Origin: Candidatus Gottesmanbacteria bacterium
GTDB taxonomy: Bacteria; Patescibacteriota; Microgenomatia; UBA10105; UBA927
Assembly: GCA_030679255.1 (NCBI GenBank)
Contig: JAUXTO010000022.1
Location: forward strand, 64,915-128,914
Direction: 5' to 3'
Length of the DNA: 64,000 nucleotides
Part shown: positions 11,386-61,240 of the stretch, piece after piece
Numbering within the stretch: position 1 is the first letter of the stretch
Layout of the letters: each line of letters opens with the position of its first letter
Notes under the pieces: generated by a model
What the model saw: only the letters and a program-made list of their open reading frames with translations
Databases searched by the model: none
What the model was told of the DNA's origin: nothing
Program-made: the position numbers and the translations under genes

Positions 11386-12810
11386 ATGAAAATTTTCTTT
11401 ACCAGTCCCTACGACGGCAAGAAGATCTACCAACCCTATATCGACCGCATTGTCAAAACGATCGAGTCGACTGGTGCCACCGTCATCAGTCCGGAAAAAT
11501 CCCGCCAATACTTTGATTCGTTTCGTGATGAAAATCTCAAAAAACTCGGGGACCATGATCGTGTCCATTATGAATTTGTCCGCCAAGGTATTGCCAATGC
11601 TGACGCCGTGATTATTGAAGCTTCTTTTGAGAATTTCCAGGTCGGTCATGAGGCGACACTTGCTATTATCTACAATAAGCCCGTTCTGTGCTTATCACAA
11701 AAAAAGGATTATGGAGAACTTATTCGCCACGAAGCATTTCAGGGTGAGCGGTACACAGATCGCAATCTCGAATCCCTTGTTCTGACATTCCTCAGAAAAG
11801 TCAGCCAAAAAATTCGATCGAAACGAAATTCCTCTCTCACGACACAGAAAAAATCCCCGGTCAATCTATCGTCTACTCATAAAAACATCGCGGTATTAGG
11901 GTCTATCAATATTGACATGTTTACCAAGGTTCCTTTCATACCAAAAGAAAATGACGTAGTTATTAGCACGGGACTCAAGCTTATCCCGGGAGGGAAAGCA
12001 TCAAACGCAGCGGTTGGACTGCAACGACTAGGAGAACAAGCCTATATGTTGGGGAAAATCGGCAACGATACATTTGGCGAGTCGATCATCTCTCTTTTTA
12101 AAAACGAAGGTATTAATACGGATTTTATTGATACAGACAGCTTTATACCAACGGGCACAGTCATGGTCAATGTAGATGCGCGGGCAAAAAACACCATCAT
12201 CGTCAATGAAGATGCCAATACCCGCGTCAACAAAAAAACTATTACCGATTTCCTCTCTGCTATAGACAAAAAAATCTTTTCCATCGATTGTTTTTATACC
12301 ACGCTGGAACTCATCCCAGAAATTATCTCGTATGCGATTAAAGAATTTCATGCCCGTGGCATCCGTATTTTTTGTGACGCAGCACCCTATATTCGGAATA
12401 TGTCAGAAAGTCTCTATCCTATGATCGACATACTCTCAGCAAATGAATTTGAGGCTACCGGTATGACCGGCATTACTGTTACAAATGAAAAAAGTGCAGG
12501 AGAGTCAGCTAAAAAACTCCGATCGAAAGGCGCCAATACAATCATCATCACGCTTGGACATCTCGGATCTGTCTTACTGGAAAAAGGACAGACTGACCCA
12601 ATCTACTTCCCGGGAATAAAAGTTTCTGCGGTTGATGAAACAGCAGCAGGTGACGCATTCCGCGCAGCATTCGTAGCAGAATTTCTTGCAACGAAGGATC
12701 TCAAGCGCGCGATGGAGCTCGGTAACCGCGCCGGAGCCTACGCCGTGACCCGCCTTGGCTCTTTTGAAGCACTCCCCACCCGTGAAGAACTCGAATTTTT
12801 TCACCATTAA
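11386..12810 (+). CDS. ribokinase/PfkB-family sugar kinase fused to an N-terminal nucleoside 2-deoxyribosyltransferase-like domain
   Basis: C-terminal half carries GGKASNAAVGLQRLG and DETAAGDAF (PfkB signature motifs). The N-terminal ~150 aa has the flavodoxin-like NDT/DRTase-style pattern (FENFQVGHEATLAI). Confidence 0.7.
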   Translation: MKIFFTSPYDGKKIYQPYIDRIVKTIESTGATVISPEKSRQYFDSFRDENLKKLGDHDRVHYEFVRQGIANADAVIIEASFENFQVGHEATLAIIYNKPVLCLSQKKDYGELIRHEAFQGERYTDRNLESLVLTFLRKVSQKIRSKRNSSLTTQKKSPVNLSSTHKNIAVLGSINIDMFTKVPFIPKENDVVISTGLKLIPGGKASNAAVGLQRLGEQAYMLGKIGNDTFGESIISLFKNEGINTDFIDTDSFIPTGTVMVNVDARAKNTIIVNEDANTRVNKKTITDFLSAIDKKIFSIDCFYTTLELIPEIISYAIKEFHARGIRIFCDAAPYIRNMSESLYPMIDILSANEFEATGMTGITVTNEKSAGESAKKLRSKGANTIIITLGHLGSVLLEKGQTDPIYFPGIKVSAVDETAAGDAFRAAFVAEFLATKDLKRAMELGNRAGAYAVTRLGSFEALPTREELEFFHH

Positions 12811-12820
12811 CACATTACGC

Positions 12821-13837
12821 ATGACACAACATCAATTACTAGCGCCCCTGCGTTCGTTCGGTATTGAAAAATCAGTCGTGACAGAGATAGCAGGACGAGC
12901 GCATCAAACATGGAAAATAGAATCTGCTGATGGCGTCTTTATCCTCAAACAATATGCCAATACAGATCTTGAATCGCTTCAACAATCCATTGAGTTTCAG
13001 AAACGCCTGATTACCCAATACATCCCGATACCCCTTTTCAACATCACTTCATCGGGAAGTCCCATAACCAAATATGAGGAAAAGCTGTATGTTTTGTCCA
13101 GGCATGTCGATCATGTCCCCCTCTCTGCTCCTGCCATTGAGATATCAGTACTCAAGCAGGCGGCCACTACCTTGGGATCGCTCCACAAGCTGGATCGAAG
13201 CATCTATCAGGATCTTTTAAAAGAAATTGATTTTTCAAAAACTACGAAAGCAGTCACCGAATTGATTCCTCAATTTAGCAAAAAATATTCTTTGTTGATC
13301 AGCACCTATCCGAATCAACGTCATAAACTTACACATCTTCGCACGATTATTACCACCACTGAGTCCTTGCGTCATCAACATCATGACCTTCATTTCCCGC
13401 CCCCGTGGGAGTGCATCCACGGCGACTATACACCGGATAATGTCCTCATCGAACGCAGCTCAAATACACTTTTCATTATCGACTGGGACAACGCCAAAAT
13501 TGCACCGCGTGCATTTGAAATCCACAAGGCCATTGGTGCTTTTTGTGGACGAGCGCCACGCAACGCATACCTGGTCCCTATTGATTGGGAAAAAGCGGAC
13601 GTGTTTCTTCGTGCCTATCACGCAGTCAATCCCCTCACAATACAGACGGTGAATGAAATCGTAACCAGCGCGGCCTACGGCAGTTCTACCTACTGGCTTC
13701 GTTTTACCCTCCTGCAAACCCTAGCCGAAGACTTTCGGATGCTCGACCTGCTCCCGGAAAACATTGAGGACTGCGTATTCTGGAAAAATAATCTGGACAC
13801 CTATCGCCGCCTGCTTCTTTCGATTTTATCCGCATAA
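12821..13837 (+). CDS. aminoglycoside phosphotransferase / choline-kinase family (protein-kinase-like fold)
   Basis: Catalytic loop IHGDYTPDNVLI and the Mg-binding IIDWDNA motif. Start moved to MTQHQLL, just after the upstream stop. Confidence 0.6.
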   Translation: MTQHQLLAPLRSFGIEKSVVTEIAGRAHQTWKIESADGVFILKQYANTDLESLQQSIEFQKRLITQYIPIPLFNITSSGSPITKYEEKLYVLSRHVDHVPLSAPAIEISVLKQAATTLGSLHKLDRSIYQDLLKEIDFSKTTKAVTELIPQFSKKYSLLISTYPNQRHKLTHLRTIITTTESLRHQHHDLHFPPPWECIHGDYTPDNVLIERSSNTLFIIDWDNAKIAPRAFEIHKAIGAFCGRAPRNAYLVPIDWEKADVFLRAYHAVNPLTIQTVNEIVTSAAYGSSTYWLRFTLLQTLAEDFRMLDLLPENIEDCVFWKNNLDTYRRLLLSILSA

Positions 13838-13887
13838 ATAAGGATTCCCCATCCTCCCCGCCGTCAAAAGCGAAAAGCACTGAAAAG

Positions 13888-14151
13888 TCATCCCAATATC
13901 TCCTTCACCATCCGGTATACATCCCGCCGGTGACGGATGAGAACAATAATTATTGTTTCATTCATTTTTTTATACACAATCCGGTAGTTTCCCGCCCTCA
14001 CACGATACACATGAGGATAGCCGGACAGTTTTTCCTCACCGGAAACCTGCGGATTAGGGAGCAATCGAATTTTTTGGGCAACGGCTAGCTGGTCGAACTT
14101 AGGAAATTTCCGCAGTTCCTTTTCCGCACGGGGAAGGATAGTAATCTTCAT
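13888..14151 (-). CDS. RelE/ParE-family toxin
   Basis: 87 aa. C-terminal GNYRIVYKKMNETIIIVLIRHRRDVY matches the RelE/ParE core. Confidence 0.75.
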   Translation of the reverse strand: MKITILPRAEKELRKFPKFDQLAVAQKIRLLPNPQVSGEEKLSGYPHVYRVRAGNYRIVYKKMNETIIIVLIRHRRDVYRMVKEILG

Positions 14152-14423
14152 ATCCCAAGACTACGGGCGACCTTCTCAAAATCTTTTCCCTTGGAAAAAT
14201 CAGCCTTGGCTACAGCTGCAGCGTCCAACTTGTCTTCCAAATAAGCCGTAAGGCGCTCAAACAACTGTTTCCCTACGAGATATGCGGTTATTTCATTGCG
14301 ATTTTCCACCGCCACCGGATAGTCCGCAGCCTGCGCAATCACGGCAGATGGATTCATTTTTAATTGGGATATAGTCGCTGTGGTCATACAATGATTATGA
14401 CCTATAAACAGGTCTTCTGTCAA
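14148..14423 (-). CDS. Phd/YefM-family antitoxin
   Basis: Small acidic ORF overlapping the RelE start by 4 nt. TISQLKMNPSAVIAQAADYPVAV resembles the YefM N-terminus. Confidence 0.6.
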   Translation of the reverse strand: MTEDLFIGHNHCMTTATISQLKMNPSAVIAQAADYPVAVENRNEITAYLVGKQLFERLTAYLEDKLDAAAVAKADFSKGKDFEKVARSLGI

Positions 14424-14445
14424 GACCTTTTAAGAGGACACGGTA

Positions 14446-14718
14446 TTATCGATACAACTGGCTATGGGTGCCAAATAATTTGAATTCTATGATGATCTCT
14501 CCGGTTGCAGAGTGACTCTCCGCATAAAGCGCTCGCCAATCGCCAGTCACGTTAATACTCCGGTATCCTTTGTACGAGCCTGCCAGTGCGTGATTATGAA
14601 GGAAGGGATGAAATGGATCAGTTTGAAAAAGCTGAGATCGCTCTGCAAAGGCCAAACGTATATGCTTATTCGCCTTGCGGTATTGCTTGCGGAATACTTT
14701 ATCGTGCCGGATGTCCAT
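14446..14718 (-). CDS. YafQ-like RelE-family toxin
   Basis: FRKQYRK....HALAG..KGYRSINVTGDWRALY matches the YafQ pattern. Internal start MDIRHDK chosen. Confidence 0.6.
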   Translation of the reverse strand: MDIRHDKVFRKQYRKANKHIRLAFAERSQLFQTDPFHPFLHNHALAGSYKGYRSINVTGDWRALYAESHSATGEIIIEFKLFGTHSQLYR

Positions 14719-21647: not shown

Positions 21648-22036
21648 ATTTGATACCCTCGGTTGCGGGGCTGGGAGTCGCACCCAGCCTAGAAGATTAT
21701 GCACGTGTTTCTCCCATTCCTGAGAGTGTCGGACTATATCTTTCCCGCTAAGCGGGATTCGGCGTATAGTCTCTACGGATTTCCGCCAACTGGCGGACCT
21801 TTCCTCGGTATTACCCTTCAATATTGAATGGGGTTTCACCGATATAGCCGAATTCTACCCTGAGATATTTCTCTGAGCAGCCCATAATCGAGCCTTCTGT
21901 GCAACTGTACACTACCCCGCGGTACATGAAAGTACTCTCGTATACTATCAAACGAACTACGGAGCGTCAACGCAGGCTTGAACTTTTTTCTGTTATTCAA
22001 TGAAAGATGCTTTCATTTTTATGCTAAAATCAACTC

Positions 22037-28663: not shown

Positions 28664-29545
28664 ATGACCACGACACCTATTGATCTTAAAACCGCCCACG
28701 TCCGGTTTGTGGAATATCTCGGGAGCCGTAAGCGTGCCCGCGCCACCATCGTAGCATACGGCAAAGATATAGAACAACTCGCCGACTTCCTCACCAATAT
28801 GGGGAAAAAAACTATTACAGAGGTCTCCCGCGATGAATTGGATGCGTTTCTCAAAAAGCTGGGATCGGACAACTATACCCCCAAATCCGTTTCACGGAAA
28901 ATCAACTCGATTAAGACGTTTTTCCGGTTTCTCAAAACAAATGGATTGGTTTCTGCCGATCCGGCCGTAGAGATCGAGCACCCCAAATATGACGTCAAAC
29001 CTCCGAGAATCTTGAGTAAACTTGAATACCGGGCGCTGCGGGATGCTTGCAGGGGAGACGCCCGCACGTACGCCATTGTCGAACTCTTTCTCCAGACCGG
29101 CGTCCGGATTGGAGAACTCGCGGCGCTTACTCTGACGGACATCAAAGATACCGAACTCCATGTTGCGGCCCAAGAGGGTCATGCGGCACGCAATGTGCCA
29201 CTAAATAAAGCGGCGAAGGAAGCACTCACGAGTTACCTCAAGGCCCGGGACGCGGTAACCGCCAAAGATCCGGCCAACACTGCGCTCTTTATTACCAAGA
29301 CCGGCAAAGCCCTCCTCATCCGCAACATCCGGACCTCAATCGACCGCTATTTCCGGATTGCCGGCATTGATGGGGCAAAGGTCAATGACCTTCGGCACAC
29401 CTTCATTGCCCACCACCTCATGGCAGGGACATCGATCATGACCCTCTCTAAACTCGTCGGCCACAAGCGTCTCTCCACCACCGAAAAATACCTCGAACTC
29501 GTCAAAGGTAAACAGACGGAGAACGTCAAATTAGAGGAGTTATAA
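28664..29545 (+). CDS. tyrosine site-specific recombinase, XerC/XerD family
   Basis: N-terminal SAM-like core-binding domain; catalytic R (VRIGEL), H..R (LRHTFIAHHL) and Y (TTEKYLEL) motifs. Confidence 0.8.
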   Translation: MTTTPIDLKTAHVRFVEYLGSRKRARATIVAYGKDIEQLADFLTNMGKKTITEVSRDELDAFLKKLGSDNYTPKSVSRKINSIKTFFRFLKTNGLVSADPAVEIEHPKYDVKPPRILSKLEYRALRDACRGDARTYAIVELFLQTGVRIGELAALTLTDIKDTELHVAAQEGHAARNVPLNKAAKEALTSYLKARDAVTAKDPANTALFITKTGKALLIRNIRTSIDRYFRIAGIDGAKVNDLRHTFIAHHLMAGTSIMTLSKLVGHKRLSTTEKYLELVKGKQTENVKLEEL

Positions 29546-31572: not shown

Positions 31573-31644
31573 GTGGGCCCGCTTGGTGACGATCCAAGTG
31601 CCCCCGTCTTATAAGGACGATGCTCTACCGATGAGCTACGGGCC
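31573..31644 (-). tRNA. putative tRNA-Ile (anticodon TAT) with non-canonical T loop
   Basis: Acceptor GGGCCCG/CGGGCCC; D arm TA GCTC ATCGGTA GAGC; anticodon stem TCGTC/GACGG with loop CTTATAA (U33, UAU, A37); T stem CTTGG/CCAAG with loop ATCGTCA (A54/U58 instead of U54/A58). Confidence 0.5.
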
Positions 31645-31665
31645 CCGAGAGCATTATACCAAATC

Positions 31666-53928: not shown

Positions 53929-54111
53929 CTATGAGCTCAGAAGATACACCAAATAAAAAAATACCTCTCGAAGTAATTGAACGAATACGCGAGAAGATGA
54001 ATGGAGATGGAGATCCCGATAGTCACTATTATGAATACGTCCCGGTGACTCCTAAACAACAGTCTGTTTATGACAAGCCGGTTGAACCACAGCCGGACGA
54101 GGCAAGCTAAT

Positions 54112-55629
54112 ATGATCCTCATCATCGACTTTGGATCCCAAACCGCCCACCTCATCGGCCGCAGGCTTCGCACGCTTGGCGTCCCCGTGGGTTATTGCAA
54201 TCCCGAAGATGCGCTTTCTTATATTAAAGATAACCAGCCCAACGGTATCATCCTCTCCGGTGGGCCCAATGACATCAGTCACGACGCATCTCTGTCTGTC
54301 GACAAACAACTGTTCAACCTCGGATTGCCGGTACTGGGAATCTGCTATGGCTGGCAACTCATGGCACATCTCTTAGGCGGGACGGTCAAACATTCCAAAA
54401 AAGAATACGGCCCCGAGGAATTAGCGCTTGATAAGCGTACCAGTATATTCAATCTACCCCGAAAAAAATTCTCCGTTATCATGTCTCATGGCGACACCGT
54501 GACGAAATTGCCAAAAGATTTTATTGCGGTTGGGTCTACCAAACAAGTCCGTTTCGCCGCAGTAGTTAATGAAAAGAAAAAATTGTTTGGCGTCCAATTT
54601 CATCCCGAGGCGGATCATACGGAACATGGGACAGAACTACTGCAGAATTTTGCAATCGATATATGCGGTGAGTCACTCTCCCCTTTTGTATTAGATCCCA
54701 ACAAAATTATCCACTCTATTATAGATACCGTCGGTAAAAATAAAGTTATCTGTGCCGTTTCGGGAGGCGTGGATAGCACGGTCACTGCATTTCTCATCGG
54801 GAAAGCAATCGGCAATAACTTAATTCCGGTTTATGTAGATAGTGGTCTTATGCGACCTGGTACGGAAAAACGGGTCCATCATATATTTACAAAACTTATC
54901 CATGCAAATCTCGTTGTCGTCGATGCCCGAAAACAATTTATGGCGGCTCTCAAAGGCGTCACAGACCCAGAAGTGAAGAGAAAAACAATCGGCAAACTCT
55001 ACATCGACATATTTCAAGAACAATCGCTCAAACAAAAAGATGCCTCATTTCTTGGTCAGGGAACGATTTATTCTGATGTCATCGAAAGTAAAGGCAGTAA
55101 ACACGCTTCTCACATCAAGTCCCACCACAACGTCGGCGGCTTACCGAAAGACATGAAGCTCACGCTCCTCGAGCCCTTGCGGAATTTTTATAAGGACGAG
55201 GTTAGAGCAATTGGTCGACTCATCGGATTGCCCAATGAGACTGTACAGGAACAGGTATTTCCGGGCCCAGGCTATGCGGTCCGTATCCGAGGAGAAGTCA
55301 CCACCGAACGGCTTGAGCAGATTAAACGAGCAGATAGTATCGTTGTGGATGAAATGAAAAAGGCTGGACTCTACGATAAAACGTATATGTGCTTTGCGAT
55401 CATGACCGGCACACATTCTACCGCCGTCAAAGGAGATGCGCGGGTATTTGCGGAAGTTGTCGCTATTCGTTCCGTCGATTCGCAGGATGTGATGACGAGT
55501 GAATGGACGCGCATCCCACATGACGTTCTTCATGTCATGGCGTCCCGAATCGTCAATGAAGTACCCAACATCTCCCGCGTCGTCTACGACATCACGACCA
55601 AACCCCCGGCGACCATGGAATGGGAATAA
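54112..55629 (+). CDS. guaA: GMP synthase (glutamine-hydrolysing)
   Basis: Class I GATase (ILIIDFGSQTAHLIGRRLRTLGV, GICYGWQL), ATP-PPase P-loop CAVSGGVDSTV, and the dimerisation C-terminus ending ...PPATMEWE. Confidence 0.95.
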   Translation: MILIIDFGSQTAHLIGRRLRTLGVPVGYCNPEDALSYIKDNQPNGIILSGGPNDISHDASLSVDKQLFNLGLPVLGICYGWQLMAHLLGGTVKHSKKEYGPEELALDKRTSIFNLPRKKFSVIMSHGDTVTKLPKDFIAVGSTKQVRFAAVVNEKKKLFGVQFHPEADHTEHGTELLQNFAIDICGESLSPFVLDPNKIIHSIIDTVGKNKVICAVSGGVDSTVTAFLIGKAIGNNLIPVYVDSGLMRPGTEKRVHHIFTKLIHANLVVVDARKQFMAALKGVTDPEVKRKTIGKLYIDIFQEQSLKQKDASFLGQGTIYSDVIESKGSKHASHIKSHHNVGGLPKDMKLTLLEPLRNFYKDEVRAIGRLIGLPNETVQEQVFPGPGYAVRIRGEVTTERLEQIKRADSIVVDEMKKAGLYDKTYMCFAIMTGTHSTAVKGDARVFAEVVAIRSVDSQDVMTSEWTRIPHDVLHVMASRIVNEVPNISRVVYDITTKPPATMEWE

Positions 55630-55632
55630 AAC
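55604..55632 (+). repeat. guaA 3'-terminal segment; first copy of a ~25-nt direct repeat (CGGCGACCATGGAATGGGAATAAAAC)
   Basis: Nearly identical copies recur at 56349-56377 and 57253-57275. Confidence 0.7.
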
Positions 55633-55635
55633 CAT

Positions 55636-56025
55636 TTATTTCCCACTCGCCAATCGAGCCAGGTCTTTATCAAATGTAAGCACCGTTTTGATCTTGTACG
55701 CCTCGATAATCGCCACGGAATAGCAATCCACCCAACTTATATTCTTACTTTTAACCATCTTAAAGATCTCCCACGCTCGGATCACAAGCTCATGCGTCTC
55801 AAAGAGGACCGTCGTTGTGCTCCCACGAAGAATATCTTCAACAAATGCAATCGTCGCTTCCTTACTGAATCGCTGCGATCCCACCGTTGCCACTTCTCCC
55901 AATATCGCCTGTGACGTGAGCTTTGGGGCCATGCCATGTTCTCTGGCTAGAGCTACTGCGGCATCGTGATTACTATCAGTAGGTTTGAGGAGACTTATGT
56001 AAAACGAGGCATCGACAAAAATCAT
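55636..56025 (-). CDS. vapC: PIN-domain toxin VapC
   Basis: MIFVDASFYISLL start and conserved acidic pattern. Confidence 0.8.
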   Translation of the reverse strand: MIFVDASFYISLLKPTDSNHDAAVALAREHGMAPKLTSQAILGEVATVGSQRFSKEATIAFVEDILRGSTTTVLFETHELVIRAWEIFKMVKSKNISWVDCYSVAIIEAYKIKTVLTFDKDLARLASGK

Positions 56026-56279
56026 ATCCGCTTGTCTCCATAAAGGTAGCGTTTGTAGTTGGTAGAAAGATCCGTAGAATATTTTTTGCCTTTGTACCGT
56101 TTCCCGATCTCAGCAAGCGCCAGGAGCTCATTTTTTACGTTCTTCCTTTTGGATAGGAAATGCCCGTCTATCGCCTCTCGCACCACATCAGAGACGCTCT
56201 GCCGCCCCTGCTGGGCAAGGAGAGTTAACATCTGCTTCTGCTCCTCTGGTATGCGGACCACGAGTTGTGTCATACGCAT
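56022..56279 (-). CDS. ribbon-helix-helix (CopG/VapB-like) antitoxin
   Basis: LVVRIPEEQKQMLTLLAQQGRQSVSDVVREAI is an RHH motif. Stop overlaps the VapC start. Confidence 0.6.
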   Translation of the reverse strand: MRMTQLVVRIPEEQKQMLTLLAQQGRQSVSDVVREAIDGHFLSKRKNVKNELLALAEIGKRYKGKKYSTDLSTNYKRYLYGDKRI

Positions 56280-56348
56280 TACATATTACAATTACTGCGG
56301 GGTGTTGTCAATAAGGGGGTTGTCTCCATTCTCATGCAGCACTAAACC

Positions 56349-56377
56349 TCCGGCGACTATGGAGTGGGAGTAAAACA
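56349..56377 (+). repeat. second copy of the guaA 3'-end direct repeat (CGGCGACTATGGAGTGGGAGTAAAAC)
   Basis: 24/26 nt identical to the guaA terminus, including the stop codon. Confidence 0.7.
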
Positions 56378-56394
56378 GTATTAGCTACGAATTA

Positions 56395-57060
56395 TTAAAA
56401 TTTAATCTGTGGATATTGAGGCTTCCAATCCCATTTTTGCCTTGGTTGCTTACTCTTTGGATCAAAATCCCAACCGCTTTTTACTAAAAGCTTATTGAGT
56501 CTCCCTCGAAGCGTCGATGCTTCCGATCTGCTTAAATCTCCATCATATGATGCCACCGCTGCTACATTCAGTCCATGAAAAATAAGAGTATCTACCGCAT
56601 GAAATGCCTCCTTAACCATTGGTGTAATAATGGGATTATTTTCTCGAAATGTATGCCGGGCGGTTGCCAAATCCAAGGGAAGAACACCACCGCTGTGTGC
56701 CGTTTGTCTAGCAAACTCTTCGGGTTGTATGATATCGGTTGTCTGTTCGGAAAAAGGATCAATAACGATTATTCCTTTCTCATTTTTATAGGTAATCGTT
56801 TCAAACCCCGGAGCAACTTTATCGGCACCTGTGGCAGGATCGAAATAGCGCACTTTCTGCGCGAGGTGATAACGAACTTGAGGATGGGAAATGTCAAGAA
56901 CTCTTTGCTGAACGGGCGTTGGATTATCTGCACTTATCTGTCCCAGAGGCACGCCGAGAGACACGCGGGGTCTTCCGTCCCCTATTCCACCAAGAATAGA
57001 TTGCGTAGGTTCGGGAAATATTGAAGGGATTTCAGCTTGTGCGTCAAGTCCAACCATCAA
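56395..57060 (-). CDS. hypothetical protein, cassette paralog A
   Basis: Shares a conserved core with the next gene (R..H....V.Y..PA.G...V.P......I.....G.I..DP). Confidence 0.45.
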   Translation of the reverse strand: MMVGLDAQAEIPSIFPEPTQSILGGIGDGRPRVSLGVPLGQISADNPTPVQQRVLDISHPQVRYHLAQKVRYFDPATGADKVAPGFETITYKNEKGIIVIDPFSEQTTDIIQPEEFARQTAHSGGVLPLDLATARHTFRENNPIITPMVKEAFHAVDTLIFHGLNVAAVASYDGDLSRSEASTLRGRLNKLLVKSGWDFDPKSKQPRQKWDWKPQYPQIKF

Positions 57061-57062
57061 CG

Positions 57063-57110
57063 CTTAGAGTACTCTCTCTCTCTCTCTGGAAATCAAGCTG
57101 CAGGCGCAAA
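57063..57110 (+). repeat. direct repeat R2 (AGTACTCTCTCTCTCTCTGGAAATCAAGCTGCAGGCGCAAATC)
   Basis: Second copy at 58155-58200 (AGTACTCTCTCTCTCTGGAAAATCAAGCGGTGGGTGCGAATC). The two copies bracket cassette paralog B. Confidence 0.6.
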
Positions 57111-57252
57111 TCGTCGTGCAGATATTAGTGCTAATATTAATAATCAAATCTGAATAGCCTTGACAAAATACACCACGTGGTTTATTTTGTCTCAACTTAA
57201 AAACAGCTTAAAAGGTAGAAAGGGGTAGAAAGCCAAACATCACCACAAACCC

Positions 57253-57275
57253 CAAACGACTATGGAGTGGGAATA
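57253..57275 (+). repeat. third copy of the guaA 3'-end direct repeat (CGACTATGGAGTGGGAATAG)
   Basis: Direct sequence identity to the other two copies. Confidence 0.65.
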
Positions 57276-58135
57276 GCTTGAAGACACGATTCTAATACTC
57301 CTGTCATTCCCTTGAGATCATCAGCATACATAGGATCTCTTTTTGTGGTGCGAAGCAATCCAAGCGCCTCTTGTACAGCCTCACGCGAAGCCTCATCCGT
57401 GATCGAATTCCCTTGTCCAATCCGGAGTATCAACTTATTATGTGGAAATATACGATTTTCTGTAAACGATGTATACTGATCGTCTGTCATGATGGCGCTG
57501 GCGAGCATGGTTTTTGGATCACACGCGATAGTTCCCCGCTTCCCTTTGTGAATAATCAAATCATATCTCGGAAATACGCGTTCTTCTCCAACGGCGGGAT
57601 TCCAATACACCACTGCATCGTTATGGACAATCCGTGTTTCTTTGTTAGCTACATCCACAACTCGCAATAACGCCAAACGATCGCTGCTCTCCGGCGCAGC
57701 ACCCAAATCCATTTCCGCTACATGAAATGTTCTGTCTGCCAACCCCCCATGAAACCACCGCTCTGGCGGAACAGTCGTGACATCTAGGCCTCGCGCTCTA
57801 TCATAACGATTCGGCTCGGGTCTTGCCTCCCGATCAAGCCCCTGCATATTTAATTGCACCATTGCCGCTTTTCTTTTTTTGACATCTTTTCTATGTTCAA
57901 AATACGTACGTGCCCGTTCAGCCTCATCCAAACTCTCCTCCCCCTTTTTGACTCTATGCATAATTTGACCAAGCTCCCTGCCTGCCTCTTTGACACTCAG
58001 AGTTGCCCTTTTCAGGGGCGCCTGAACACGTGCCAATAGGCTAGCAGAAACCTTGTCCCGCAGCGCCTGCTGCGCGGGCGTTTGTTCCATCGCCGGTGTC
58101 CAATTGACTGGTTTGCCTTCTGTTACTTCAACCAT
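57260..58135 (-). CDS. hypothetical protein, cassette paralog B (K/R-rich N-terminal extension)
   Basis: C-terminal ~150 aa homologous to paralog A (RIVHNDAVVYWNPAVGEERVFPRYDLIIHKGKRGTIACDP versus RYHLAQKVRYFDPATGADKVAPGFETITYKNEKGIIVIDP). Confidence 0.45.
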   Translation of the reverse strand: MVEVTEGKPVNWTPAMEQTPAQQALRDKVSASLLARVQAPLKRATLSVKEAGRELGQIMHRVKKGEESLDEAERARTYFEHRKDVKKRKAAMVQLNMQGLDREARPEPNRYDRARGLDVTTVPPERWFHGGLADRTFHVAEMDLGAAPESSDRLALLRVVDVANKETRIVHNDAVVYWNPAVGEERVFPRYDLIIHKGKRGTIACDPKTMLASAIMTDDQYTSFTENRIFPHNKLILRIGQGNSITDEASREAVQEALGLLRTTKRDPMYADDLKGMTGVLESCLQAIPTP

Positions 58136-58154
58136 AATTTTCTCCTACTTGGAT

Positions 58155-58200
58155 AGTACTCTCTCTCTCTGGAAAATCAAGCGGTGGGTGCGAATCAACA
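58155..58200 (+). repeat. direct repeat R2, second copy
   Basis: See 57063-57110. Confidence 0.6.
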
Positions 58201-58226
58201 CGGTGAAGGCGTGCTACAATAATCCC

Positions 58227-58556
58227 ATGGCGTGGAATGTCCGATTCTTTCAAACAACAAGAGGCGACTATCCGGTAAAAAAATTCATTGAGGAACAAGA
58301 CATGCCCACTATTGCCAAAATAACTCACTCGATCGAACTTTTGGAAAGCTATGGCCCCTACCTCAAGCCCCCATACATCAAAAAACTTGAAGACAAACTT
58401 TATGAATTGAGAATATCTGGTAAAATCGCGGTCCGAATTTTTTATACGATGTCACACAATGCGTACTACTTGTTACACGCTTTCAAAAAGAAAACGAATA
58501 AGACGCCTCGCAGGGACCTCCGCACCGCCCTTGACAGAACAAGAGAACTAATATAG
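58227..58556 (+). CDS. higB: HigB-like (RelE/ParE superfamily, phage Gp49-like) toxin
   Basis: VRFFQTTRGDYPVKKFIE...LYELRISGKIAVRIFY...YYLLHAFKKK matches the Gp49/HigB family. Start taken at MAWNVRFF. Confidence 0.7.
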   Translation: MAWNVRFFQTTRGDYPVKKFIEEQDMPTIAKITHSIELLESYGPYLKPPYIKKLEDKLYELRISGKIAVRIFYTMSHNAYYLLHAFKKKTNKTPRRDLRTALDRTRELI

Positions 58557-58568
58557 CATATATGCTAT

Positions 58569-58853
58569 ATGAAACACCGACACATGGATTTTTCCGTTTG
58601 GAAAAAACAGGCTTTACAAAATCCGGCGCTGCGGACAGAATATGATAAGCTGCAACCGGAATTTGCGCTTATTCGTGCTGTGGTAGAAGCCAGGACAAAA
58701 CGAGGCCTCACGCAAACGGAGCTAGCCCAACGGATAGGCACCAAGCAATCTGTCATTTCTCGACTTGAGATCGGCAGAGCAAACCCATCGGTAGCATTCC
58801 TCAAAAAACTCGCAGAGGCGCTCAACAGTAACCTACAAATCCGCTTTACGTAA
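58569..58853 (+). CDS. higA: XRE-family HTH antitoxin (HigA-like)
   Basis: RTKRGLTQTELAQRIGTKQSVISRLEIGRANPSVAFLKKLAEAL is a Cro/C1-type HTH. Confidence 0.75.
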   Translation: MKHRHMDFSVWKKQALQNPALRTEYDKLQPEFALIRAVVEARTKRGLTQTELAQRIGTKQSVISRLEIGRANPSVAFLKKLAEALNSNLQIRFT

Positions 58854-58854
58854 T

Positions 58855-59763
58855 ATGATACCGGCCTATCCGAAAATTTTCTCCATCGGCTCGCCCTACA
58901 TCCCTCATCTCTTCAAGGGGAGCGTTGAAGTGACGGAAAAAATAGACGGCAGCCAATTTACCTTTGGTCTGGATAGTCAGAAAAACCTACTGCTTCGCAG
59001 CAAAGGCAAAGACCTCTATATTGATGATCCGGAAAAAATGTTCCAGGGTGCCATCGATTATGTGGTCGCAATTGGCGAAAAAATAAAAAAACAATTTCCC
59101 CCGGAAACGTTCTTTTATACGGAATTTTTAAGTACACCAAAACACAATGTCTTACCGTATGCACGGATTCCCAACAATCATCTCATGGTGTTTGCTGCCT
59201 ATTTTGCAGGCACCGGATTTGTCGATTATAAAAAATTAAAAGTAATAAGCGATCTGTTGGATCTTGAGGTCGTACCGCTTCTTTTTGAAGGAGAAATAAA
59301 AAATGTTGAAGAACTGAACCATTTGCTCAATCGTACAAGCGGCTTGGGCGGCGAAACCGTTGAGGGAATTGTGGTAAAAAACTACGCGCAAACGGTCTTT
59401 ATTGCCGACCAGGTCTTTCCTTCGTTGGGCAAATTTGTCCGGGAACAGTTTAAAGAACGCCATAAAAAGGAGTGGAAGAGAAAAGAAGGAAAAGGCAAAT
59501 GGCAAACCTTCTTGGAAAGTTTTCGGACCGATGCCAGATTTAGAAAATCGGTACAACACCTTACCGAAAAAGGGGAGCTAAGCTTTACTCCCGCCGATAT
59601 TGGCAAACTTATGGTCGAGCTGAAAAAAGATGTTATTGACGAAGAAAAAGAAGCGATCAAAGAAGAACTCTACACATTCTTTATTGATGAAATTTTGCGC
59701 AAAGCCACCGCTGGGTTCCCCGAGTGGTATAAAGAGCAACTGCTGAAAAAAGCCTTTACCTAG
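58855..59763 (+). CDS. ATP-dependent RNA ligase, Rnl2/nucleotidyltransferase family
   Basis: Motif I EKIDGSQFTF (KxDG), motif IV-like EGIVVKNY, and lysine-rich motif V. Confidence 0.55.
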   Translation: MIPAYPKIFSIGSPYIPHLFKGSVEVTEKIDGSQFTFGLDSQKNLLLRSKGKDLYIDDPEKMFQGAIDYVVAIGEKIKKQFPPETFFYTEFLSTPKHNVLPYARIPNNHLMVFAAYFAGTGFVDYKKLKVISDLLDLEVVPLLFEGEIKNVEELNHLLNRTSGLGGETVEGIVVKNYAQTVFIADQVFPSLGKFVREQFKERHKKEWKRKEGKGKWQTFLESFRTDARFRKSVQHLTEKGELSFTPADIGKLMVELKKDVIDEEKEAIKEELYTFFIDEILRKATAGFPEWYKEQLLKKAFT

Positions 59764-61240
59764 GTTTATTGATGACAATCGGGCGCAAGCGGCTCATTTC
59801 CTCGAGAGAATAGTGCACTCCTTGGACCCCGAGGCCCGAACGTTTGACCCCAAGAAATGGAAAGTGGTCGGGGCCGCGTTGGGGACTCCCATTAATTTGA
59901 ACGGTGCCAACGTTTAACTGCTTGGCCACCACAATCCCCGCCCCCTCGTCTTGGGTAAACACCGAGGCCTGCAGTCCAAACCGCGATGCATTGATGATCC
60001 CCACTGCCTCCCCAATGTCCTTAACAGTGATGAAAGACACCACCGGTCCGAATACTTCCTCTCGCACTGCCGGCATTTCCGGCCGGACGTCAGATAATAT
60101 TGTTGGCTCGACGAATGCGTTTGTTCGCCTGCCACCGGTAATAATTTTTGCCCCAGCCTTCACGGTCTCACCGATGAGCGACTGGATATGTTCGGCTGCC
60201 GCAATGGAAACAACTGGTCCCACGAGTTTGGTCTCCGGACTCCGGGGATCACCCATGTGCACAAGCTCAGGCATTTGTTTCATGATGACTGTTTGAAGTG
60301 ATGCAAGGGTGTCAGGCATTCCGAGGACATACTTGATCGCCGTACAGCGCTGCCCGGCATACGAGAAGGCTCCTTTGATAATCTCGCGGGCGGTGAGATT
60401 CATATCCGCGTCCGGGAGAACTAAGGCTGGATTGTTGCCGCCGCATTCAAAGACCAACGTCTTCATCCCCGCCTTTTTAGCTATGGCCTCCCCAGTGTCT
60501 GAGTTTCCTGTGAAGGTGATGCAATCGATGCCCGGATGAGAAACGAGATAATCCCCGATATCACTCCCCGTCCCCGTCACACACGTGAGCGCTCCTTCCG
60601 GTACACCTGCTTTCAGAAATGCTTGTGCCAAATGGAGCGCGCTTATTCCCCCTTGCGTCGGCGGCTTAAAGACGACCGCGTTACCCATCAGGAGCGCCGG
60701 GGCGAGTTTACTCGCAGTAAGATTGACGGGATAATTAAAGGGTGCAATAGCAAGAACTGTCCCCCATGCCACGCGCTCGATGAGACCAATCCGTCCTTTG
60801 TCATACCCAGGAAAATTATCGCTATCCAGAGTCTCCCCGCGCATCGACTGGACTTCATCGGCGTAGTAATCGATGAGGTCAGCGGTCCGGACAATTTCAC
60901 TTTTGGCTTCTCCCATGGACTTGCCAATTTCTTTTGCAAGCAATGTTGAAAGATATTCTTCAAAATGCCGGATCCAGTCGGCCGCCAAATGCATGATCTT
61001 TACGCGTTGGTTAAGGGGTGTGGCTTCCCACTTCGCTTGTCCGGTTTTAGCAGAGGTCATCACCGCGTCAATCTCGACTATCGTCACGACCTGCAGTGCC
61101 CCCACCACACTATCATCTATAGGAGAATGGATCTCTACCGTTTTTCCGCTCGCGCTTTCCACCCACTCTTTTCCATTAAAAAAACGATACACAGGTGGTG
61201 TCGCGTGATTACTGAGGGTTTCAAAAAATTCTTCCGGCAT
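59756..61240 (-). CDS. gapN: NADP-dependent non-phosphorylating glyceraldehyde-3-phosphate dehydrogenase (aldehyde dehydrogenase family)
   Basis: ALDH motifs FKPPTQGG, catalytic FECGGNNPALV (Glu) and GQRCTA (Cys). N-terminus resembles GapN. Confidence 0.8.
   Translation of the reverse strand: MPEEFFETLSNHATPPVYRFFNGKEWVESASGKTVEIHSPIDDSVVGALQVVTIVEIDAVMTSAKTGQAKWEATPLNQRVKIMHLAADWIRHFEEYLSTLLAKEIGKSMGEAKSEIVRTADLIDYYADEVQSMRGETLDSDNFPGYDKGRIGLIERVAWGTVLAIAPFNYPVNLTASKLAPALLMGNAVVFKPPTQGGISALHLAQAFLKAGVPEGALTCVTGTGSDIGDYLVSHPGIDCITFTGNSDTGEAIAKKAGMKTLVFECGGNNPALVLPDADMNLTAREIIKGAFSYAGQRCTAIKYVLGMPDTLASLQTVIMKQMPELVHMGDPRSPETKLVGPVVSIAAAEHIQSLIGETVKAGAKIITGGRRTNAFVEPTILSDVRPEMPAVREEVFGPVVSFITVKDIGEAVGIINASRFGLQASVFTQDEGAGIVVAKQLNVGTVQINGSPQRGPDHFPFLGVKRSGLGVQGVHYSLEEMSRLRPIVINKPR

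Follow-up and report, generated by a model that had tools for sequence, protein, structure and literature searches.

The stretch of DNA analysed here, hereafter the window, comprises 64,000 nucleotides (nt) of a Candidatus Gottesmanbacteria bacterium (GenBank assembly GCA_030679255.1, contig JAUXTO010000022.1, positions 64,915 to 128,914 of the forward strand), and our subject is the 3' end of its guaA gene, which encodes GMP synthase. Downstream of guaA, the terminus of this gene recurs as displaced copies that delimit compact cassettes of small genes. The components of the array are listed below in window coordinates; ORF stands for open reading frame, and labels with the letter L denote loci of relatives.

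54070..55629, plus strand: guaA (GMP synthase), the target gene (Pfam GATase and GMP_synt_C; synteny, empty sites)
55597..55629, plus strand: terminus copy 1, the live guaA end, TKPPATMEWE and stop (repeat search, codon-aware pattern)
55630..56340, minus strand: cassette 1, 711 nt, with VapC/PIN and RHH antitoxin genes and a promoter-like site of its own (Pfam; promoter scan)
55636-56025, minus strand: PIN/VapC toxin gene (Pfam, PIN at 54 bits)
56022-56279, minus strand: RHH antitoxin gene (Pfam RHH_1, borderline at 20.1 bits against a cut-off of 20.5)
56341..56373, plus strand: terminus copy 2, a displaced guaA end, TKPPATMEWE and stop (repeat search; orthologous to the copy before ORF A in L005, L181, and L183)
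56374..57235, minus strand: cassette 2, 862 nt, with ORF A, the element R2a, and an orphan palindromic promoter/operator (gene calls, homologues, promoter scan)
56395-57060, minus strand: ORF A, 221 amino acids, an orphan family without a Pfam hit
57066-57112, no strand: R2a, upstream element of ORF A (repeat search)
57236..57276, plus strand: terminus copy 3, a displaced guaA end, KPQTTMEWE and stop, with a 1-nt indel upstream (repeat search; the overlap recurs in L100 and L184)
57260-58135, minus strand: ORF B, 291 amino acids, an orphan and paralogue of ORF A without a Pfam hit
58153-58196, no strand: R2b, the homologue of R2a upstream of ORF B, containing a (CT)n tract (repeat search)

The last ~30 nt of guaA, including the stop codon, occur three times, ending at 55629, 56373, and 57276, in agreement with the original prediction, made from the letters of the window alone, that the terminus recurs twice downstream of the gene. 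The repeat search recovers them as a family, R1, of three 29-nt copies (55600-55628, 56344-56372, and 57247-57275), the outer ones being 83-86% identical to the middle one, and a codon-aware pattern for the last six codons, ACNATGGARTGGGARTAR, has exactly three matches in the 64 kb, compared to 0.01 expected, a number reached in none of 100 shuffles. All three copies are in frame and each retains the terminal stop, the encoded ends being KPPATMEWE, KPPATMEWE, and KPQTTMEWE, with the live protein ending in ...TTKPPATMEWE. Between copies 1 and 2, there are five synonymous and no non-synonymous differences; copy 3 is the most decayed, with two amino acid changes and the indel, and the 3' end of ORF B overlaps its last 16-17 nt. 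An assembly artefact, which the original prediction had named among the outcomes that would undo it, is ruled out because an independent Logan assembly of run SRR13727518, compared with this region of the window, is identical across 14,917 nt, and because the repeats are just ~30 nt long and differ from one another by single-nucleotide polymorphisms. The predicted gene content (guaA, VapC with an RHH antitoxin, the paralogues A and B, and HigBA with an RNA ligase beyond them) likewise holds, the RHH match being borderline.

The relatives of its GuaA and the source name of its proteins place the organism among Gottesmanbacteria-like Microgenomates within the Patescibacteria. The comparison covered the loci of GuaA relatives, 80 from genomes and 80 from metagenomes, sampled to +/-8-9 kb around guaA, plus five Logan contigs with homologues of ORF A or ORF B. 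The order UPRT, PRT, guaA, a variable stretch, aldehyde dehydrogenase on the minus strand, SNase, and EF-P is conserved in the Gottesmanbacteria-like clade. The variable stretch is absent in seven loci, where the stops of guaA and the aldehyde dehydrogenase gene are 0-3 nt apart, the configuration expected of an unoccupied attB, and it spans 502-5298 nt in 21 other loci. Displaced guaA ends, 13 altogether, were found in 10 genomes (two each in the window, L053, and L115, and the remainder in L005, L054, L066, L100, L126, L181, and L183), so that direct repeats of the guaA terminus resembling attL and attR are present both in the window, with its three copies, and beyond it. In L115, the last displaced copy abuts the stop of the aldehyde dehydrogenase gene; a copy at the native flank is what would be expected of an attR, or of the original end left behind. 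The polymorphism in presence and absence that was anticipated for relatives is thus found, in the form of empty sites in seven loci and of different cassettes beside the same displaced end.

The displaced copies remain joined to the DNA on their right, and it is on the left that they part company. The window, L005, L181, and L183 have in common, as orthologues, the unit made of copy 2 and ORF A, which is preceded by VapBC in the window and in L181, by a 39-nt hairpin in L005, and by a 1.3-kb AAA_14/DUF4143 ATPase gene in L183; three different left neighbours imply at least three independent insertions at one point. The unit made of copy 3 and ORF B, with the same antisense overlap, is found also in L100, behind a cassette encoding a sigma factor, an anti-sigma factor, and an orphan. 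In L184, it is the live guaA that directly overlaps the ORF B homologue, and this locus appears to represent the state before insertion, with ORF B, by this comparison, the probable former convergent neighbour of guaA. The insertions in the window are therefore ordered, the oldest lying farthest from guaA.

The nature of the differences between the copies and the live ends bears on where the copies came from. In a codon-by-codon count over the last ten codons, with stop-codon swaps taken as synonymous, 11 displaced copies show 40 synonymous and 7 non-synonymous differences from the resident end. Such a predominance of synonymous changes indicates that the copies diverged while they were coding, in different lineages, so that one member of each pair came from outside; the displaced copies are accordingly best viewed, to judge from this codon pattern, as the ends of foreign guaA genes and not as local duplications. 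The idea of a local duplication of the guaA end, by a long target-site duplication or by slippage, followed by neutral decay, or of an artefact of assembly, retains only a minute probability. Two cases resemble it, a perfect 42-nt repeat at an IMPDH-like gene in L140 and L141, and the identity of copies 1 and 2 of L115 over 54 nt, but neutral decay should yield mostly non-synonymous changes, the opposite of the 40:7 ratio, which essentially refutes this scenario, and the same structure recurs in 10 genomes from different samples, in addition to the identical independent assembly.

The cassettes between the copies are discrete. The starts of the copies fall 27-41 nt before the stop codon in 10 of 12 independent events, and the similarity always ends at the stop codon or within 3 nt of it. 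The 14 cassettes of our set, which includes cassettes at two genes other than guaA, are 39-1772 nt long and contain no truncated gene at either end; the size comparable to that of integron cassettes, noted in the original prediction, is accordingly confirmed, the cassettes being compact and made of whole genes only. Among the 13 gene-bearing cassettes, 11 are oriented like the target gene, the two in the window being reversed, and in these 11, the distance from the last stop codon to the next copy ranges from -1 to 103 nt, with a median of ~11. Given that just 9.4% of the local DNA is non-coding according to the gene calls, and that only whole genes are present, randomly placed right-hand ends are very unlikely. 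The cassettes contain toxin-antitoxin (TA) pairs (RHH-PIN, two MazE/AbrB-PIN pairs, DUF4258 with an MqsA-like zinc finger, and MNT-HEPN, assigned by eye), small regulators (TrpR-like, PaaX_M, sigma/anti-sigma), the ATPase, and orphans.

These units move independently of the body of guaA. The ATPase cassettes of L114 and L183 share ~84% DNA identity, from the last ~60-90 nt of guaA through exactly the ATPase stop codon, and the guaA bodies upstream of them share ~66%. The VapBC cassette of the window is 86% identical over its full length, both junctions included, to that of L181, where the junction from the guaA end into vapC, GAATAAAAC(C/G)ATTTATTTC, is also kept, and 79% identical to that of L018, compared to 68% for guaA. 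Because the cassettes are more similar than the guaA genes beside them, they have moved between lineages with, at most, a terminal piece of guaA.

The signature is concentrated at guaA and is not confined to it. When the last 33 nt of each of 1892 ORFs from the relatives' loci and the window were sought downstream of the same ORF, displaced ends were recovered for guaA in 7 genomes and for three other genes, guaA being ~20-fold enriched over the other ORFs in the same loci. The three are an IMPDH-like gene (L140, 12024-13890, and also L141), where the perfect 42-nt repeat surrounds a TA pair identified by eye as MNT-HEPN; an FMN reductase gene with two displaced ends (L048, about 12437-14701); and the PBP1A gene (L114, 15249-19121), where a 55-nt copy with mostly synonymous differences follows an orphan of 414 amino acids. 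No displaced ends of the aldehyde dehydrogenase gene were found in these loci, though it borders the same variable region.

Taken together, these observations are best accounted for by a scheme, to which we give an even chance, in which mini-cassettes devoid of an integrase insert serially into the last ~30-40 nt of guaA through the action of a recombinase encoded elsewhere. Each incoming cassette would carry its own guaA end, a foreign synonymous version of ...TKPPATMEWE and stop; recombination within the terminus would turn that end into the new live end of guaA, and the old end, along with all DNA downstream of it, would be shifted one step away from the gene. In the window, the starting point would have been a guaA and an ORF B that were convergent, with overlapping 3' ends; then the ORF A unit would have inserted at the guaA end, leaving copy 3, and, last, the VapBC unit would have inserted at the new end, leaving copy 2, with copy 1 having come in together with cassette 1. 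That copy 3 is the most decayed agrees with the arrival of the ORF A unit before the VapBC unit. Serial insertion with regeneration of the guaA end each time, the core of the original prediction, fits the empty sites, the polymorphism, the independent insertions, and the synonymous-only differences; that the insertion is site-specific, as this prediction further holds, is a proposal. As the catalyst, we infer a site-specific recombinase supplied in trans, its gene being located at another place in the genome or carried by a helper element.

The search for such an enzyme yielded one candidate, listed here with its coordinates.

28664..29545, plus strand: Xer-like tyrosine recombinase (Pfam SAM_1 and Phage_integrase)

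This protein matches the NCBIfam XerC, XerD, and XerA models below their equivalog cut-offs and scores 70 bits against the integron-integrase model, for which the cut-off is 265; its gene lies 26 kb from the array, with an IPP isomerase gene and an FtsL-like gene as neighbours. It is apparently a housekeeping recombinase, and a role for it in trans is a speculative suggestion. As in the original prediction, it is the only tyrosine recombinase identified in the window, among the ORFs that were scanned. The sites of Xer/dif modules comprise ~28 nt, with two inverted arms around a 6-8-nt spacer; the minimal repeat at guaA, of ~30 nt, is of a matching size, a Xer-like gene is present, and convincing dyad symmetry was not seen by eye. 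The absence of an integrase inside the array, also predicted, is borne out: no cassette ORF matches Phage_integrase, and the ORFs of the variable regions encode purine genes, TA pairs, regulators, and the ATPase, by Pfam.

Several results weigh against insertion by a dedicated site-specific enzyme. Across ~160 loci, tblastn and Pfam detected neither an integrase nor a transposase, be it in the cassettes or in the 8-9 kb around guaA, and tblastn with the Xer-like protein as the query gave, in 80 loci, just one match within 8 kb of guaA, 7 kb away in L073. When 8 terminus copies were folded, together with their flanks, as single-stranded DNA, no attC-like folding emerged (z from -1.8 to +1.7, no shared structure), and by eye, there is no obvious dyad symmetry in the 30-nt site. 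On their left side, the displaced copies are preceded by sequence that varies between cassettes, and no shared motif was discerned by eye either there or rightward of the live stop codon. Two copies, of 63 and 75 nt, are longer than the others, and the scan for displaced ends is blind to copies shorter than ~25 nt. Two of the cassettes, VapBC (in L018 and L122) and the ATPase (in L114), also occur without a displaced copy behind them. Viral contigs contain no mimic of the guaA end, two scans having returned 0 and 17 matches, with all 17 due to chance and lacking KPPAT. Finally, given the signature at three other genes, the specificity in such a model would have to be multiple or relaxed.

The main rival is a recombinase-free displacement of gene ends, a possibility that we regard as rather unlikely. 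Under this scenario, Microgenomates DNA consisting of a guaA end and its downstream sequence would be taken up and would recombine via the ultra-conserved last 30-90 nt of the gene; illegitimate recombination, of the short-homology or the homology-facilitated kind, might be the route, or else a fragment might circularise and integrate in the Campbell manner. The end from the donor would then serve as the live one, with the former end retained downstream. The arrays have no recombinase nearby, the signature extends to three other genes, the copies vary in length from 27 to 75 nt, and the last 60 nt of guaA are the best-conserved part of its last 300 nt, with a mean pairwise identity of 82-84%, compared to 69-75% for the end of the aldehyde dehydrogenase gene. 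This conservation could explain both the hot spot and the asymmetry, and because the stops of the two genes abut, an insertion would have to restore the guaA end in order to be viable. There is published precedent as well, C-terminal displacement having been proposed for the rhs arrays and the effector-immunity arrays of type VI secretion systems (T6SS) (PMC5361080), and a 9-mer from the end of the aldehyde dehydrogenase gene, TTACTGCGG, at the right end of cassette 1 is suggestive (p ~0.004). Yet, random right-hand breakpoints in DNA that is ~91% coding should mostly hit genes, and truncated end genes occur in 0 of the 13 gene-bearing cassettes; the supposed truncated remnants are not significant in alignment shuffles; the boundaries cluster at -27 to -41; and the ATPase cassette travelled without the adjacent guaA body and hence without a long homologous anchor. 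Moreover, most synonymous sites differ, so that the donors would be distant, and exact matches of ~15 nt make a poor substrate for RecA; and this route would account for the stacking of cassettes, not for the first arrival of a cassette beside guaA. In favour of recombination at a defined site in the guaA terminus are the discrete ends, the clustered boundaries, the asymmetry, a synonymous divergence that is close to saturation, and the movement of cassettes separately from the gene body, whereas the lack of a recombinase or helper, the cassettes without a displaced copy, the other genes, and the conserved last 60 nt keep the route without a recombinase in play.

It is conceivable, too, but improbable in our estimation, that the cassettes are remnants of integrase-bearing islands or prophages that once occupied the guaA 3' end and of which just the att-proximal genes are left, relics akin to cis-mobilizable elements (CIMEs), stacked by tandem accretion, in which TA genes resisted loss. 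Elements with a tyrosine integrase are classically recognized by direct repeats of a target gene's 3' end, the cassettes contain a disproportionate share of TA pairs, and both the use of guaA as a target and a model of CIME formation and accretion are on record (PMC5704250). What this account lacks is the elements themselves: there are 0 intact or partial integrase-bearing elements at guaA in the ~160 related loci, and no viral contig has a matching attP. The cassettes, for their part, are compact, consisting of whole genes without pseudogene debris, and the same small cassette has the same ends in different genomes (VapBC in the window and L181, the ATPase in L114 and L183). It is the absence of both debris and any intact element that makes decay less likely than insertion of ready-made cassettes into the guaA terminus.

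The original prediction included a second pair of recombination repeats, R2, bracketing ORF B as a cassette of its own. The pair exists, as R2a and R2b, but it is not a recombination repeat. R2 immediately precedes the start codons of both ORFs, A and B, and is kept before the homologues in L005, L181, and L184; its position before the start codon of every ORF A/B homologue examined indicates an upstream element, a promoter or leader, of this gene family, not a bracket of a cassette, and rules out its use in recombination. Neither does ORF B form an R2-bracketed cassette; together with copy 3, it would be an older neighbour of guaA, as the overlap in L184 suggests. The (CT)n tract of R2 (57072-57089 and 58159-58170) is not equally long in the two paralogues, nor in their orthologues (L181, L184), and is situated between TTGATT-like and TACTCT/TACTAT-like hexamers on the coding strand; judging by this placement, it could tune or phase-vary the expression of ORF A and ORF B.

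The proteins of the two ORFs are only distantly related (28% identity over 64 amino acids, E 2e-9), and their families are tiny, with 5 and 3 proteins, respectively, in a database of 5.8 billion. The AlphaFold model of ORF B (pLDDT 70.5) combines a helical hairpin with a beta domain and has no fold match in the PDB (best E 0.39). In phage lambda, int occupies the position next to attL that is held here by the convergent orphans. The possibility that ORF A, ORF B, and similar convergent orphans are novel recombinases was considered and finds no support, the families being tiny and the ORF B model having no PDB match.

In cassette 1, the VapC and RHH genes overlap by 4 nt and form one operon with the antitoxin first, the organization of type II VapBC systems, preceded by a promoter-like TTGACA-17-TAATAT at 56311-56283 (promoter scan). 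A 10-bp hairpin at 55620-55645, in which the end of guaA pairs with the start of cassette 1 (TGGGAATAAA / TTTATTTCCCA), is probably a shared terminator of the convergent guaA and vapC genes; similar pairing is seen in L054. The TTACTGCGG 9-mer, an exact match to the aldehyde dehydrogenase terminus of relatives, lies at 56292-56300, within the spacer of the vapBC promoter, and in L018 and L122, the -35 box of this promoter overlaps the real stop codon of the aldehyde dehydrogenase gene, so that the 9-mer in the window could be a relic of a former position of the cassette or a coincidence. Truncated gene remnants at the right ends of cassettes, which would speak for the insertion of random fragments, were also sought and rejected: an aldehyde dehydrogenase 3' end at ~56292 was equalled in 140 of 500 alignment shuffles, a PaaX-like 5' end at 57192-57240 was not significant (78 of 1000), and an anchored extension test at the right ends of the cassettes was null. 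In cassette 2, a perfect 30-nt palindrome at 57160-57191 contains TTGACA-17-TATTTT; the same palindrome precedes a gene for a PaaX_M-domain regulator in L004, L005, L100, and L115 and also follows that gene in L004, L005, and L115, and, the window having no PaaX_M gene, it would be an orphan promoter/operator there. The GC content of the cassettes is not distinct from that of the flanks, and no known RNA families of the Rfam type were found in the region.

Beyond ORF B, the variable region continues to its conserved right flank as follows.

58227-58556, plus strand: HigB-like (Gp49) toxin gene (Pfam)
58569-58853, plus strand: HTH antitoxin gene (Pfam)
58855-59763, plus strand: RNA ligase gene, its end overlapping the aldehyde dehydrogenase stop, in the same position as in L114 (Pfam)
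59756..61240, minus strand: aldehyde dehydrogenase gene, the conserved right flank of the variable region (Pfam, synteny)

The HigB-like/HTH pair (58227-58853) sits directly before the start codon of the RNA ligase gene, with no displaced terminus beside it; in L114, its place is taken by the ATPase gene, followed after 11 nt by the RNA ligase start. Another TA-like pair, BrnT/CopG-like, is found upstream of the UPRT gene at ~49.7-50.2 kb, again with no displaced gene end beside it. Elsewhere in the window, there is a group I catalytic intron at 21710-21900 on the minus strand (Rfam, 56 bits, above the gathering score) and, at 31573-31645 on the minus strand, a tRNA-Ile with the anticodon TAT, which is unusual in bacteria, most of which decode AUA via a modified CAT anticodon.

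How TA pairs and other one- or two-gene modules spread without a transposase or integrase is a long-standing loose end, and, to our knowledge, almost nothing is known about gene flow in Patescibacteria. The guaA locus provides a repeatable footprint of such spread, with the stop codon of an essential gene as the landing pad and displaced foreign ends as time-ordered markers, and the coexistence of empty and filled sites among relatives makes the question testable. Should a recombinase acting in trans be responsible, this would be a new, platform-less cassette system; should no recombinase be involved, short ultra-conserved gene ends alone would be able to drive the stacking of cassettes. A more sweeping version, which we put forward as a tentative conjecture of low probability, is that Patescibacteria practise an integron-like capture of genes without a dedicated platform, whereby the cassette site mimics the last ~30-40 nt of a housekeeping gene, mostly guaA, but also the genes for the IMPDH-like protein, PBP1A, and FMN reductase, and a recombinase encoded elsewhere, possibly Xer-like, inserts the cassette at the stop codon, as a general route for TA modules and small regulators.

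Among the known systems, the closest in location are the genomic islands at the same gene end. The 3' end of guaA is the target of the tyrosine-recombinase elements ATE-1 of Trueperella, the IncP island of Brucella suis, and GIsul2 (PMC5704250), so that its status as an integration hot spot, invoked in the original prediction, is well founded, and guaA is so described by Song et al. 2012, as cited in PMC6764341 and PMC4482086. As in the arrays described here, these islands are flanked by repeats of the guaA terminus and leave guaA intact (PMC5704250), but their lengths range from kilobases to tens of kilobases, and each has a tyrosine recombinase gene of its own beside the att site, whereas the units in Patescibacteria measure 0.04-1.8 kb and have no recombinase. 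The CIMEs and the tandem accretions of the ICESt1/ICESt3 type in Streptococcus likewise involve att-flanked units without integration genes and repeated use of one site (PMC5704250), and the cassettes at guaA, too, are flanked by att-like repeats and devoid of genes for recombination or transfer. However, CIMEs are decay products of integrative and conjugative or integrative and mobilizable elements, with helpers of the same specificity, and here, neither debris in the 14 cassettes nor a helper at guaA was found in the ~160 loci within +/-8-9 kb. A different parallel is offered by the orphan arrays of rhs, contact-dependent inhibition, and T6SS loci, where a new 3' end arrives with its cargo and old ends are kept downstream of the live gene, as they are at guaA, without any recombinase being invoked (PMC5361080). 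There, what is displaced are long variable toxin domains with immunity genes, anchored by a long gene body; here, it is an invariant terminus of 27-75 nt, and the comparison of L114 with L183, with ~84% identity in the cassette and ~66% in the guaA body, reveals no homology anchor in the body of the gene.

In their architecture, the guaA arrays come closest to integrons, sharing with them small cassettes with minimal non-coding DNA, a site directly after the ORF, growth at the proximal end, one main orientation (11 of 13 here), and the frequent occurrence of TA cassettes. Integrons, though, possess intI, attI, and a promoter at the head of the array as well as attC sites that fold into hairpins, whereas here, guaA heads the array, no such hairpin is formed by the 8 terminus copies folded, the site is the coding end of a housekeeping gene, and several cassettes have a promoter of their own. 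With respect to the exchange of the gene end itself, there is a parallel in phage 21 and e14, which integrate in icd of Escherichia coli such that the element supplies a largely synonymous 3' end and the original is left downstream as a pseudo-end; these are phage-sized, integrase-encoding, single insertions, unlike the mini-cassettes at guaA. The literature that we searched, on integration at guaA and on cassettes in Patescibacteria, contained no description of arrays of this kind, which is not a proof that none exists. Integration at the guaA 3' end and tandem accretion, then, are known phenomena, and what is new here is their integrase-less, mini-cassette form in Patescibacteria.

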